DNA of 64,000 nt from Oikopleura dioica (lineage: Eukaryota > Animalia > Chordata). Both the position numbers and the translations under genes were made by a program. Of this stretch, positions 14,239 to 43,110 are shown piece by piece. The stretch covers positions 1,612,001 through 1,676,000 of the forward strand of contig OU015566.1 of NCBI GenBank assembly GCA_907165135.1, given 5' to 3'. Below the pieces are notes generated by a model. That model did not search any database. It worked only from the letters and a program-made list of their open reading frames with translations, and was not told the origin of the DNA. Each line of letters begins with the position of its first letter. Position 1 is the first letter of the stretch.

Positions 14239-17200
14239 ATGGGATTACCGCCGTGGCTGGCTAATAATGATCCGTTGAGTCCACCATCCAATGTTGCTTC
14301 CAATTCTTCGACATCTACCTCTGGATTAGAGCGTTTAAATTTACTGTCAGGTGCCAGTTCTCAACGAAAACGCCGGCCATTCGACCACCTTGGTCTCGTT
14401 GAGATACCTACGAAGCGATTTGATGGATTTCCTCTTATTTGTAATCGCTATCAAAACAAGGACAACAAATGTGCTTCTCCTGGCAGTGTCAACAATCCAG
14501 CAATTGAACGACCGCATCTTCATGCAAAAAGAAAAGTTCTTCACCCGCTAAATAACTCTGTGCCCACCACGAAAATTCCGACAAAATCTGATGTTTCCGA
14601 CTATAAGTCAAACGAAACTCCTATTGAGGTGGTGGACTCTAACGCAAATATTGCTGGCGCGGAAGTCATTTGCGAAATTTCTCTTCCGGCTGTTAATTCT
14701 GCATCTTCTATGCAGAATTCTATCGATTCTCCACTTGAACACGATCGTAAATCAATTGAAAATCCTCTCAATGAAGTAAATTCATCGAGTATCGATTCCG
14801 TTACTGCTGTAAATACTACAATACTCGAAACGCAGTCTCTCCCTGCTCCTGAACAAGTTCAACTCGAATCTCAATCATTAACAGTCCCCTCATCTACCTC
14901 TGAAGGCTTTGTCGAAGTCTCAGAGACTAGCCCTACTGTCTCTCCTGCTGATCCGGAAATGGTTGCCTCTGAAAATGTCGCGTGCTCTCCTTATCAAGTA
15001 CTTCCAGTGACTCTTCCGCTGATGTGAACTTAGCTCTTTCACTTGCTGATTCATCAAGATTTCCTACTCCGACACCATCATGCCGCGAAAAGACTGAGAC
15101 GAATAAAGCGTCAAATGTTATTTATCGACATATCGGCCGAGCTACGAATCCTAGCCAGAAGTCTTTACCTAAAGGCTCTCCCAATTGCCTAAAGAAGCTA
15201 ACATTTGTCGCTACTGGAGACGGAGTTAGCCTTAACCGCGACGAATTAAAGGAGCTAATTGTTAAGTTTGGCGGTAAGCTTACTACGCAAATTTCACGTC
15301 AAACAGACTATCTTATTGTTGGTCCGAATAATTCTGGGCAAAAGAAAATACTTGATGCCAGCGAAAAGGGCGTTAAGAAGATAAGCGAGGAACAATTCTT
15401 GGATCTCATTCGTTTCCGGTCTAATGGATCTAATAAGCGCCCTTCTAGCAGCCGACCGCGCGAGACATCTGATACACGGGAGTATGTTCCTCCAATTAAA
15501 TATTCTTCAAATCGTGCTCAGCTTCTCCTCGAAAAAAAATCTGTATTGCTCACAGATGGCAAATCTATAGAACAGTAAGTGCTTCTTTCCTTAAAATTCT
15601 ACAAGTATTATAGGGTTTCTTCGGCAACTGTTTCTCAGGGTTCTTCTTTTTCCGGCATGGAAAAAGCAGTGTATTGGACGGATAAGTACAAACCATCTAT
15701 AAACGATCTTTTCGGGCATTCTCGTAAAGACAGCGCTGTTAACAAGCTTCGTGAATGGCTGCAAGAGTGGCATGACAACCGTGTTCTCGAAAGCAAAGAT
15801 TCCTCTTATCATCCAAAAGGCTCTCCTGGTTCCTATCGCTCTATTCTTTTAACTGGTCCGCCGGGTATTGGAAAAACAACTGCTTCTCATGTGGTGCCGA
15901 AGTCATTGGGAATGCGAGTCATCGAATTTAACAGCTCCGACAAGCGAAATCGAACAAACGTACAAAATGATGTTGCGAGTTCAGTGGATTTTGCTCATAT
16001 TCATTCGATGCTCGATCAATCGGCTTCCTTCTCATGCCCTGGAGAAGTATGTCTTATGGATGAAGTCGATGGAATTGCTGGAAATGAAGATTTCGGCGGG
16101 TTTAATGAACTCAAAAAGCTGCTGAACACTTGTCGTATCCCTATCATAATGATAGCAAATGATAGAGGCAATCCCAACATCCGAGCGCTGATTAAAACCT
16201 GCTATGACCTTGTTTTCCCAACTCCTTCTGAAACAGCAATTTTGGGTATCTTTTCTTTGTCTATTTCTTGTTTTTATTTATTAGGGAGATTGTTTCATAT
16301 TTGCCACAAGGAAAATCTCGATCTGCAGAAGAGTGAACTTACGCTTATTGCAAGGTCGCACAATTACGATTTTCGAAGAATACTTAATACTGTGTTTATG
16401 ATGTCAGCTGACAAACGTCGCATTAACCTCAAAGATGAATCGATGGACAATATTGATCTCAAGAAGTTTCTACCGCTTGATGGTCACCATACGCGCCCTA
16501 AAAGTCCATTTGACGCTTGCAAAAATGTTTTCGATGCCAAATTTTCTCTTGATGAGAAACAAGAATTGTTCTTCAGTGATTACAACCTCCTGCCAAATTT
16601 CGTTTATGAAAATTACGTCAGGGTGAGACCAAGTGACGCCAATGAGATTGTATGACTTTTTTTTCAACAAGTGTTAATATTTATTTTAGGAACACATGCA
16701 ACTCATCTCAAAGTCTGCGAGCGCCATTTCGTCTTCCGATTTAATGAATCCCCTGTCAACGACTTGGAGGCTTTTGCCAGTTATTGGCGCCTTTTCTACA
16801 ATTATTCCCGGTGTGTATCTTCGAGGCTCTTTTGGATACAATCGCATGAAATTTCCCGCCATTTTCGGAAAGCAATCTACTGCTCAGAAGAATCGTCTGA
16901 TTGCAGGTTTGAACTTATTTTATTAAACAAATAATCAATTTGCGCTAAGCTGAGCTCTTGGCCCATCTTTCATACAATTCCTCTCGCAAAATGGATTAAG
17001 CAGTCGCATGGACCTTATTACGTGCTTCCTCCCATCTTTCTGCGAAATCCTTTGCCTTCCACTCGTTTGCGAATCCTCAAATCAAATTCCACGGGGAGGG
17101 AGTCCAAATCGTCAAAGGAATGCTAATCGACAATAGGTATATATATATATTATCCAAATGATATTTTTTCATTATAGAATTACAAAAAACGACATGGACA

Positions 17201-17652
17201 ATCTCCTGGAGCTAAATCATTGGCCGAATCAAAGGCATTTGCTTTTTCGTGTATTACCTTCGGTCAAAAGCTCCCTGACAAAAATTTGCAATAAGTCGGA
17301 AGGAATATTGCCCTATCTTGTCGATACTAATGCTCCTCAAAAGAAGAAAACCTCGTCGCTTAAATCCATCTCTTTGGCTATCGAGAAAGAAGGGTACTTT
17401 CGTTTCTTACTTAAGTTTTTCTGAAAAAATACTTGCTTAAGAGAAAACTCTGCAAATGCAGCGGATTCTGGCGAAAATATATCAAATTGGATGACGAAAG
17501 CGCAGGCAAAAATGAATGAGATGACGAAAACTAAAAAGTCGGCCGTAGAAATACAGCAAAAACGAAAGAAAGAAGAAAGAAGACAAAAAGAATTGTCTTC
17601 CATGGAAAAGTATCTGAAAAGAAGAAGCAAAATTTTGAATGATGAACAATAA
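14239..17652 (+). CDS. RFC1: Replication factor C large subunit (RFC1-like): BRCT + AAA+ + RFC1 C-terminal domain, spliced; frame discontinuity near 15000
   Basis: BRCT: PNCLKKLTFVATG...GGKLTTQISRQTDYLIVG. WTDKYKP. Walker A GPPGIGKTT. EFNSSDKR. Walker B LMDEVDGIAGNEDFGG. LFFSDYNLLPNFVYENY. WRLLP...KFPAIFGKQS. Confidence 0.95.
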
Positions 17653-40654: not shown

Positions 40655-40962
40655 ATAAATTATCAGAATGCTCACGACTGTACCGAATGCCTAAAGAATG
40701 CCCCTTCCCGAAAAAAATTGAACCAACTGTACCCCTTCTCAATGTATCGAATGCTCATGGAATTTATCTTATCTTCATAAATGTCGTAAATTAAGATTGA
40801 AAAGATCCTGTTCAGTCCAAGCTGACTACATCAATTGCAAAGATCAATGAGTTTCATGGTCTCGGCAGTTTGAGAGCGCGACCGGAAGAAATATAAGTAG
40901 CCATCGTAGCGATAAGGTCATCCAGTCCCTGATTCAACTTGCGGATCCAGTTGTTTCAAAAA

Positions 40963-43110
40963 ATGGAAAAGCAACTGAAGAGAGCTCACGTTGGAATTCG
41001 TGTTACGCGCCGCGTCAACGATGAAATTCATTCCGTTGGCATCAAATTTCCATTACAGATATATTCGTCAGTGCCGATGTACAAGGATGTTTCGGTAACG
41101 GAGAGTGAAAAAAATATCCAACGGTTTAATAGAAATACATAATATTTTGTTTTATTTTTCACTTCCAAAAGAGAATAGGCCAGATACTGGAAGAGCGACG
41201 GCACGCATTACAAATTATCGAAGGTAAAGATAGTTACAAATGGAAAAAAAATAAATGTTAAGGAGCATATAACGACCATCAAAAGCAAACGGAAATCAAT
41301 AAGCGTCTCCACAAAGTCTTTCTCCATGACCAAAAAATAAAATTAATCGGATTGGATTCAATGGTTCCGAATCAAGAGCAACGAATTAATGATGAGATTT
41401 CTCATTCGATGCTCAAATTGGCAATATGCCGCAGCAGAAAGAACATGCGAGAGTGGTTCATAGAAAATGAAACGAGGCTTTTCGCGTACAGATATCATCG
41501 ACTTACGAATGAGGCAAGGGATCAGCAACAATATTTTTTTTCTTTAATTTTTGGTTTTCCATCAAATTCACATCTCAAATATTGCCTCAGTTTGCCAATC
41601 TCTGTGAAAGACGAAAGAAATTTTCGAACAGGTAAACGGAAAACTAAAATAAGTCCTTCACATATGTAAAAATGCATCATTGCATTAACGAACCATATCA
41701 GGAATTAATGGGCAAAGCAACTCAAATGGACGAAAGTTCCCTTCCAGAAGATAAACTGCACTTAATTCTATCAGCAGCAAACATTGGCAAACAGAAAAGA
41801 CGAAGGTGGTACAAAATTCCATGGATTGACGCAGTAGAGATGGTCGGAGAAAGAAAATTCCACATGGAACATGGAAAGAGATCCAAATAACACCGTGCTA
41901 AATAGATAAATTTCCAGAAGAGACAGCATGGGTCTCGCGAAGTGTTTAAATAATAATATTTTTCAATAAAATTTGGAACTCAAATCAGATTTGGTAGGGG
42001 TTTTACCGAATGTAAAATAAAGGACTTTATCTAAAACACTTTAGCTTTTCTTCCTTCCGATGCGATGACAGAGTATATAACCAAGAAGTTTAAAAAGGAG
42101 TGCGTACGCTGGCTTGAAGGAATGGATGAACGATTTGACCTTATTATGGCTGAAGACGGGCTCAAAAATCATAAAAATGAAAATAAATTTTCTTAGGCAG
42201 AAGGAATATTATGCTTTATATAAATTATAATAACACTTTTACCCTCTCGAGCCATCACAGACGAAAGTCGGAAAATAGGTATACTATTTAATAAATTTAC
42301 ACAAATTACAGAAGAGTAATTTTAAGAATCGCTTCTGAAGGAATTTCATCATATCGACCCCTATTTCGACAACGGAGAATACAAAAATCAGCTAAGAATG
42401 AAAAACATCGAAGATTTGAGTCTCACGTCGTTGCCACCATGCATGCTTAGCATTTTACAGGCACTAGAAAGAGACAAGAAATTATACCTCCAGGTAAAAA
42501 TGGACCAAAACTTAGATATTATCAACAAACTCATTAAGGGCAGATTGCAACTATGGTCGTTCTTTATAGCAGCAGGAGTCCCCTTGCGCGAAACAAGATT
42601 GTTTACGTTCGAAAAGATGTCCGATTATCCAAATCCAGAAGATGAATTTAGCTACGCGGTTAATCATGCGTATGGAGAGGTCGGCAGAAAGAAAAAACTT
42701 GGTAAGCCACAATCATATTTTAATAATTACAATCAAAAGAACCGTACACCTGTAAAACGAAGATAGATTTTATGGTAAAATCAGGAAATTATCATGGATG
42801 TCCATTCAAGGAAGGTTTTTATTTACTTTTAAAACTAAGGTAAGTCAAATAAATACCCAAAAAGAACAAAAACAAACTCGAAGGAGACATTAAAGAATGG
42901 GGAATTGAAACGGCTGACATTGAAGATTTAATGAAGTCCGCGGAAAATAGCCACCCCAGGGATATCTGTCGTCACTTCTTTATCAAGAAACACGAAGGCA
43001 CATTCGAGCATAAGGACACGATAGATTACAAATCCCCAATCGAATACTTCGAACAGAGCCTCGCGTGGAAAAAGGGCACTCATAAGGCACACTTTAAAAA
43101 CGAAAATTGA
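40963..43110 (+). CDS. PRIM2: DNA primase large subunit with Fe-S domain, spliced
   Basis: FPLQIYSSVP, DEISHSMLKLAIC...REWFIENETRLF and WYKIPWIDAV. All four Fe-S cysteines are present: LPPCM, PYTC, YHGCPF, DICRHFF. Also KSPIEYFEQS. Confidence 0.92.

Follow-up and report, generated by a model that had tools for sequence, protein, structure and literature searches.

A giant Mutator-type transposon in Oikopleura dioica with a predicted replication module and a strand-skew switch near its midpoint

What kind of genetic unit carries a clamp-loader subunit, sliding clamps and a primase without a polymerase, and what might it use them for? These questions arise from a 64,000-nt window of the Oikopleura dioica genome (assembly GCA_907165135.1, contig OU015566.1, positions 1,612,001-1,676,000, forward strand), in which an initial annotation had recognised RFC1 and primase genes unaccompanied by RFC2-5, a polymerase or a helicase. 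Our analysis of its sequence indicates that the carrier is a 48.2-kb DNA transposon of the Mutator superfamily (a Mutator-like element, MULE), which that annotation had not named, and that strand composition reverses near the midpoint of this element. The features that define the element, in window positions, are as follows.

12326..60546, no strand: whole predicted element, 48,221 bp, Mutator-superfamily DNA transposon, delimited by terminal inverted repeats (TIRs) and a target-site duplication
12318..12325, + strand: left 8-bp target-site duplication, AAAATTTT, placed by the restored open frame
60547..60554, + strand: right 8-bp target-site duplication, AAAATTTT, matching the left copy
12326..13602, + strand: left TIR with subterminal repeats, from alignment to the right TIR
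59237..60546, - strand: right TIR, from alignment to the left TIR
20565..49866: six internal, polar copies of a 14-bp TIR motif, from a motif scan (20565, 23632 and 31503 on +; 39660, 45115 and 49853 on -)
22780..29534, + strand: Mutator-like transposase with a Zn-finger region and a C-terminal domain shared with protein P0122; start codon uncertain

The two TIRs, each ~1.3 kb, are identical at 1175 of 1265 aligned bases (93%), with 58 gap columns. Removing the element in silico together with one copy of AAAATTTT restores an open frame, and joins shifted by 1 or 2 bases stop earlier; because AAAATTTT is palindromic, the duplication is supported mainly by this restored frame. The insertion appears to split a host exon (flanks 12189-12325 and 60555-60813), and a Kunitz-like exon can be made out by eye downstream, near 61170-61310. 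The 14-bp TIR motif has 18 matches against 0.12 expected, every one within the element, and the internal copies are all oriented like the nearer TIR (6 of 6; chance 1 in 64), flipping at the skew-switch region described below. With the replication module included, the element holds ~25 genes. Its left junction is also present in sequencing run X5, at a depth of ~17-21 over both the junction contig and RFC1. Such equal depth, which is no measure of copy number, is as expected of single-copy DNA and would suit a set of ordinary host genes lying between two short TIR elements; the matching 8-bp duplication with its restored frame, the transposase inside, the confinement of the polar motifs to the element and the low identity of PCNA1 to canonical PCNA (36%) all argue against that arrangement, and we regard it as the least probable of the explanations considered here.

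In the numbering of the public model P0121, the catalytic residues of the transposase are D673, D744, C769xxH772, W849 and E877. Across an alignment of six sequences the D, D, C and H are invariant, the W is present in four of six, and the E is found in all four sequences that span its position; these motifs are common to O. dioica relatives at 25-40% identity, two of which UniRef labels "MULE transposase". The described MULE signature places (C/D)xxH 15-45 aa downstream of the second Asp, and a Trp ahead of the Glu (PMC5499845). With DDE, CxxH and W, long TIRs and an 8-bp duplication (expected range 8-11 bp), the element has the features of a MULE. Pfam gave no match for P0121, P0122, P0126, P0129, P0139 or P0143, and P0125 matches PF20700 at E 0.0047, below the cut-off. 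Five of the eight matches in the representative search were real; the other candidate relatives, P0124, P0127 and P0128, proved to be chance repeats. The alignment was too diverged to serve in locus scans. A 24-nt tandem repeat at 24286-24630 (+ strand), in the transposase N-terminus, encodes a G/D/T/S-rich octapeptide.

Introns across the window are 39-48 nt, a eukaryotic, host-style length; the first exon of PCNA1 is 100% identical to P0121, whose source label is an Oikopleura dioica chr1 gene model; and 29500-39400 is present in seven DNA runs from four studies. P0121 fuses the transposase, PCNA1 and PCNA2, with exons that match those of the window, and its database name, "DNA sliding clamp PCNA", masks the element in databases. 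An exact database look-up found one of 10 open reading frames (ORFs) on record. The replication genes, and two genes that lie among them, are listed here.

14239..17652, + strand: RFC1-like large clamp-loader subunit, ~1050 aa, 6 introns; long N-terminus, BRCT, AAA+, lid and collar
29600..30646, + strand: PCNA1, 256 aa, open frame with one GC-AG intron; PCNA_N and PCNA_C domains
30746..32033, + strand: PCNA2, 258 aa; PCNA_N and PCNA_C domains
32996..36500, + strand: PRIM1 catalytic primase subunit, perhaps joined to a preceding 130-aa domain and linker; spliced 537-aa frame with no stop
34050..35050, - strand: orphan gene nested inside a 1.4-kb PRIM1 intron
37136..38480, + strand: candidate third full clamp with an acidic tail, 300-aa open frame, 4 canonical introns; an ESM Atlas lead
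40963..43110, + strand: PRIM2, the large subunit of the primase, from Pfam; four positions for Fe-S cysteines; several splice junctions provisional

RFC1 runs from an ATG at 14239 to a stop at 17652, matches the Pfam BRCT (E 2.6e-15), AAA (E 2.9e-10) and RFC1 C-terminal (E 8.5e-11) families as well as the RFC1 lid, and has intact Walker A (GPPGIGKT) and Walker B (MDEVD) motifs. Word-limited homologue searches returned 244 proteins for RFC1, the best 41% identical and none a close relative; only this locus's public model for the PCNA1 exon; and 19 candidates for the PRIM1 exon, none of which was accepted. Compared with 115 RFC1s, mostly fungal, the element's protein agrees at 60 of 74 columns that are at least 95% conserved and at 6 of 49 variable columns. 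A tree built on 36 of 121 rows groups it with animal RFC1 (support 94/86) on a long branch outside the BRCT-less clade, and the NE insertion of animal RFC1s is also present, so that this gene appears to be of animal host origin. At two positions the element's protein has changed: the Arg of DRGG, present in 113 of 115 other RFC1s, is Phe, and the aromatic residue of a motif that we take to be the clamp dock is Met. A literature search on the Arg of yeast Rfc1 found nothing.

The predicted proteins confirm that the element encodes at least two PCNAs. PCNA1 is 36% identical to canonical PCNA, and PCNA2 is 30% identical to canonical PCNA and 23% to PCNA1. At the position that we take to be K164, PCNA1 has Ser and PCNA2 has Glu. 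K164 is described as a site of clamp control (PMC8618651). A metagenome match to PCNA1 (L001) proved to be an unrelated canonical PCNA and served as a reference. Two further genes are leads only as clamp-like proteins. ESM Atlas look-alikes of 37381-37668 are PCNA_N, PCNA_C and Hus1 domains (0.89-0.92), and pairwise, three-sequence HMM, shuffle and PDB phmmer tests of the 37136 gene as a clamp were not significant. The 130-aa domain at 32996 gave no ESM Atlas lead and no useful PDB phmmer match, nor were a three-sequence HMM and shuffles significant; its single-sequence model (pLDDT 46) reached Z 3.6 in VIA, with PCNA in 5 of 50 rows, and its resemblance to half a clamp is unproven.

PRIM1 may instead have a separate start near 33741, which would make two genes. 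Its DIDVD at 35584-35598 and Zn-knuckle cysteines match a solved PRIM1 at E 2.5e-12, SGRRGAH lies at 35777-35797, and the third Asp with HxxRxPFSVH matches at E 5.4e-7. PRIM2 has Pfam matches at E 1.8e-9 and 1.1e-4, and four cysteines that are presumably the Fe-S ligands: PPCM (42440, aligned), YTC (42751, by position), HGCPF (42799) and DIC (42967). The statement of the initial annotation that the catalytic DxD/SGRRGxH residues and all four cysteines are kept thus holds, the fourth cysteine being placed by its Pfam region only, with no PDB match.

Its other observation, that these genes come without RFC2-5, a polymerase or a helicase, was borne out by Pfam, PHROG and motif searches. None of the 333 ORF segments searched against Pfam (out of 466 of at least 45 aa; thresholds at least 50 aa on the + strand and 55 aa on the - strand) matches a polymerase, helicase, small-RFC or capsid family, and the same four were missing from the matches of 30 trimmed exons at E 10 and of 59 exons against PHROGs. 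A six-frame scan found no PolB motifs, although short or very diverged exons could still conceal a fold, and two Walker A matches, of which one belongs to RFC1 and the other to a short antisense frame; no visible orphan gene span is long enough for PolB. With such a gene set, any use of these proteins needs host parts.

A Teratorn-like DNA virus that integrated, became fused to a transposase and has since lost its polymerase and capsid would account for the size, the many orphans, the RING genes and the duplicated membrane-protein genes with basic cleavage-like sites. However, no PolB, helicase, packaging ATPase or capsid match was found in window searches, RFC1 has a BRCT domain and lies outside the BRCT-less clade, the introns are of host type, and viral contigs held no relative, in a search that reaches close relatives only. 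We consider a viral remnant very improbable, and the integrated large virus with PolB that the initial annotation had named as its refuting case was looked for and not found. As to particular virus-like elements, library and motif searches of window segments gave no packaging ATPase, retroviral-like integrase or terminase. A Polinton/Maverick identity was rejected, with no match to protein-primed PolB, capsid or packaging ATPase and a transposase that is Mutator-like, as was a Teratorn-like virus, which would bring a herpesvirus polymerase, helicase, terminase and capsid together with piggyBac (PMC6431247).

If the element has its own replication proteins, does its DNA show that they have been used? 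The feature that bears on this question is its strand composition.

36045..37600, no strand: A/T strand-skew switch (cumulative minimum 36045; 99% set 36100-37600; midpoint 36436)

The cumulative A-T minimum, at 36045, is 391 bases from the element midpoint, and the flanks are flat. In counts that exclude 6 of 61 guessed introns (unplaceable or too short) and the 24-nt tandem repeat, fourfold sites have a coding-strand A/T skew of -0.21 in left-half + genes, +0.225 in right-half + genes, +0.23 in left-half - genes and -0.14 in right-half - genes; that is, genes pointing inward have negative skew and genes pointing outward positive skew (p 1e-17). Introns of + genes likewise go from 490A/790T on the left to 312A/269T on the right (p 6e-10). 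Since some right-half exons are unverified orphans, the test was repeated on homology-supported cores alone, where the switch persists (p 2e-5). With gene direction fitted, the change point falls within 36100-37600 (99% set, likelihood ratio 105), a step and a gradient both improving the fit, and the observed V exceeds that of all 2000 block shuffles. Because the switch follows position and not gene direction, it points to a process that enters from both ends or leaves from the centre. Strands extended or displaced from each end are T-rich, which fits synthesis started at the ends. DNA synthesis most likely begins at both ends and meets mid-element, and the midpoint switch suggests, as new evidence, that this synthesis is specific to the element.

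We propose that the element uses its own RFC1, primase and clamps, together with RFC2-5 and a polymerase from the host, to copy itself inward from both ends, with gap repair as the favoured setting; we hold this tentatively, at somewhat less than even confidence. In a unit defined by its transposase, TIRs and 8-bp duplication, the transposase would cut both ends, as Muta1 does, and the element would move. The 48-kb donor gap would be refilled from the sister chromatid or homologue, its ends extended inward until they meet mid-element, so that the donor copy is kept and one copy gained. Tracts of this length would leave single-stranded DNA exposed over tens of kb, away from any normal fork, where the element's primase could prime and where its RFC1, borrowing RFC2-5, could load K164-less clamps. 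The trace left behind is the strand bias that reverses at the midpoint. All the biochemical steps here are inferred. Muta1 has been described to excise through double-strand breaks, with donor sites repairable from the sister or homologue (PMC5499845), O. dioica has been reported to lack canonical end joining (PMC11067885), and its germline is syncytial, with endocycling nurse nuclei (PMC3973624); together these lead us to favour two-ended gap refilling. The initial annotation had suggested that host RFC2-5 and polymerases are reprogrammed for the element's own DNA, through either amplification outside S phase or gap repair after excision. The idea of such reprogramming is supported in part, by the mobile element, the selected-looking proteins, the encoded clamps and the missing RFC2-5, polymerase and helicase; of the two routes, the skew switch fits gap repair better than amplification from an inner origin. 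A stronger version, in which the element represents a new class of self-replicating eukaryotic transposon, a semi-autonomous Mutator-type replicon that has tamed the host lagging-strand toolkit, with a primase that may be tethered to a clamp, a private heteromeric clamp, its own loader subunit, replication from two ends on a host polymerase and no viral ancestry, is in our estimate doubtful.

A different intermediate, namely a copy-out circle or extrachromosomal replication from a TIR junction before reinsertion, as in IS256 and TnGBS elements, would rely on the same set of parts and leave an identical trace, and a symmetric switch is indeed what two equal replication arms would produce. The fold of the transposase bears directly on this alternative. 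The best Foldseek match of the predicted core model (pLDDT 53) is the copy-out transposase ISCth4 (PMC7780238), of the IS256 family (E 1.7e-4), and VIA gave Z 7.5 for ISCth4 (rmsd 4.5 over 183 residues), 6.6 for Hermes and 6.3 for the P element. An RNase H fold with a helical insertion, related to IS256, is predicted, the match being modest given the pLDDT of 53. TnGBS circles are described to replicate, and maize Mu1 circles have been reported (PMC3942029). However, the animal MULE that has been tested, Muta1, cuts both strands, the structural match is weak (TM 0.24-0.31), with scores for Hermes and the P element close behind. We consider a copy-out route unlikely, though next in line after gap refilling.

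Several observations weigh against two-ended copying by the element's own proteins. The assembly contains three frame breaks in RFC1 (one near 14988, two in the exon 16950-17136) and an in-frame stop in PCNA2 near 31773, none of which the initial annotation mentioned. In the read comparison, which covers 11900-20500, an X5 contig over 14545-17148 shows no substitutions and five gaps, one of them at the first RFC1 break; absence of a break in X5 was seen for only one of the three. The assembly is described as Nanopore-based (PMC8008620), and sequencing errors at these breaks are accordingly plausible. X5 also has higher depth at 13600-14588 and 17633, with long loose ends that find no match in the window; these are possibly partial or derivative copies of the element. 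In a diverged copy sampled by run X7 at a depth under 6, the listed differences (103 further difference rows lie beyond them) fall on 15 of 1238 RFC1 bases and 30 of 1234 other non-TIR bases (p 0.017), so that RFC1 differs at half the density; the listed RFC1 changes, 6 non-synonymous to 5 synonymous, are not distinguishable from neutrality (p 0.10). Of the RNA runs, X11 gave 7 partial reads, mostly of low identity, and X8 gave none; both also missed the host flank, so the shortfall does not speak against expression. The breaks, the stop, the 6:5 ratio and the animal origin of RFC1 would be expected if host replication genes were decaying passengers, captured passively as in Pack-MULEs. Yet the element carries entire multi-exon genes from a single pathway, which match canonical proteins at 30-40% identity and preserve conserved columns; its TIR motifs and skew span the whole interior, implying long residence; and Pack-MULEs hold fragments, below 7 kb in a study cited by PMC6431247. 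Passive capture is in our view improbable. The cargo proteins look selected, judging from the conserved columns of RFC1, the intact primase motifs and the density of differences in X7.

The skew is also open to another cause. Two host flank genes (transporter-like by eye, tail to tail at 6200-9700) are skewed by -0.24 and -0.22, the same size as the element, so transcription could have caused the element's skew; and G/C skew at fourfold sites shows no switch (p 0.76). If convergent transcripts read through from TIR promoters, the predicted sign would be the same, and the skew is larger near the ends. MULE TIRs are described as holding promoters (PMC6446971). The cargo might then act on the host, with the changed RFC1, the K164-less clamps and several RING ligases sequestering RFC2-5 or shifting fork and checkpoint control in the syncytial germline to the benefit of transposition; the changed DRGG Arg and docking motif could mark a decoy, and at least four RING-type genes accompany it. 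Nevertheless, the primase retains its catalytic and Fe-S residues, host introns have little skew (70A/78T, a small sample) while those of the element switch, and most right-half genes would be antisense to such transcripts. Host-directed cargo with read-through skew is, we judge, rather improbable. Turning back to two-ended gap refilling, Muta1 donor sites in yeast are reported to be repaired mostly precisely, without copying of the element (PMC5499845), the 7% difference between the TIRs means that the copy studied may be dead, and the whole analysis rests on one element copy.

How does such an element compare with known systems? Like Aedes Muta1 and maize MuDR, it combines a DDE enzyme bearing CxxH and W with an 8-bp duplication and long TIRs that contain subterminal repeats, but its 1.3-kb TIRs, 48-kb length and ~25 genes with a replication module contrast with the TIRs of 14-500 bp given in a MULE survey (PMC6446971). 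It shares host-derived sequence between MULE TIRs with Pack-MULEs and Pack-TIRs, which are described as fragments, mostly of 1-2 kb (PMC6431247), whereas the element has whole diverged genes with active sites kept. With a transposase and whole multi-exon genes inside, it was not classed as a Pack-MULE, and Pack-MULEs were reported absent from 100 animal genomes (PMC8277862). In TnGBS and IS256 elements a Mutator-type transposase is likewise linked to element replication (PMC3942029, PMC7780238), but TnGBS is bacterial, with a plasmid replicase and conjugation, in place of a eukaryotic primase, clamps and RFC1. Teratorn and Polinton/Maverick elements are similarly large, with TIRs, a DDE enzyme and replication genes (PMC6431247); they carry viral polymerase and capsid genes, while none was found here and the cargo is of cellular origin. 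Lastly, RFC-like complexes swap the large subunit (Rfc1, Ctf18, Elg1/ATAD5 or Rad17) on an Rfc2-5 core (PMC8618651), as we propose for the element, whose extra large subunit would be a transposon-borne RFC1 paralogue and putative RFC2-5 partner. Literature searches, covering listings and the openings of abstracts, returned no such element, although the family may be catalogued in supplements or repeat libraries, and "MULE" has no matches in the main text of O. dioica genome papers PMC8008620 and PMC11067885.

The remaining cargo includes the following genes.

20795..21240, - strand: RING-finger gene (Pfam zf-RING_2, E 2.5e-10)
32086..32891, + strand: RING-finger gene (Pfam E 6.6e-4, below cut-off)
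39042..39460, + strand: RING-finger gene (Pfam E 0.0026, below cut-off)
43409..43915, + strand: the Zn-finger region of the transposase, present as a separate copy (weak phmmer match, E 4e-4 in a set of 6 sequences)

A RING-like Cys/His pattern, seen by eye without a Pfam match, lies at 55148-55582 (- strand), and the element likely carries several E3 ligases. Just upstream of the first RING gene is a Cys-rich orphan (21200-21800, - strand) whose beginning looks CUB-like to the eye. Duplicated orphans at 50290-51200 and 56694-58600 (+ strand) have hydrophobic segments, coiled-coil-like stretches and basic RARR/RVRR sites similar to those cut by proteases, and possibly represent membrane or secreted cargo. 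A second orphan pair at 47500-49200 and 52820-54590 (+ strand), 74-91% identical in blocks, looks degenerate and has no Pfam or PHROG match. In the host flanks we note a TGAGC pentamer array with an inverted end (10265-10790) and further small inverted-repeat elements (61597-63326).

Taken together, the evidence describes what we consider a real giant MULE of an unusual kind, seen in one copy, with a measurable replication-like signature and a replication module that looks selected and whose function is predicted. Large eukaryotic DNA transposons with replication genes, such as Polintons and Teratorn, are described as having taken them from viruses (PMC6431247). This element, by contrast, appears to have drawn its replication genes selectively from its animal host, and its base composition would record a fixed direction of synthesis. 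If this is true, it would show how a cut-and-paste element can exceed the usual size limit, and would let the swapping of RFC large subunits, and the working of primase without Pol alpha, be tested in a natural setting. It would also provide, for a chordate with a scrambled genome and no canonical end joining, a source of long-tract repair and rearrangement that can be tested.

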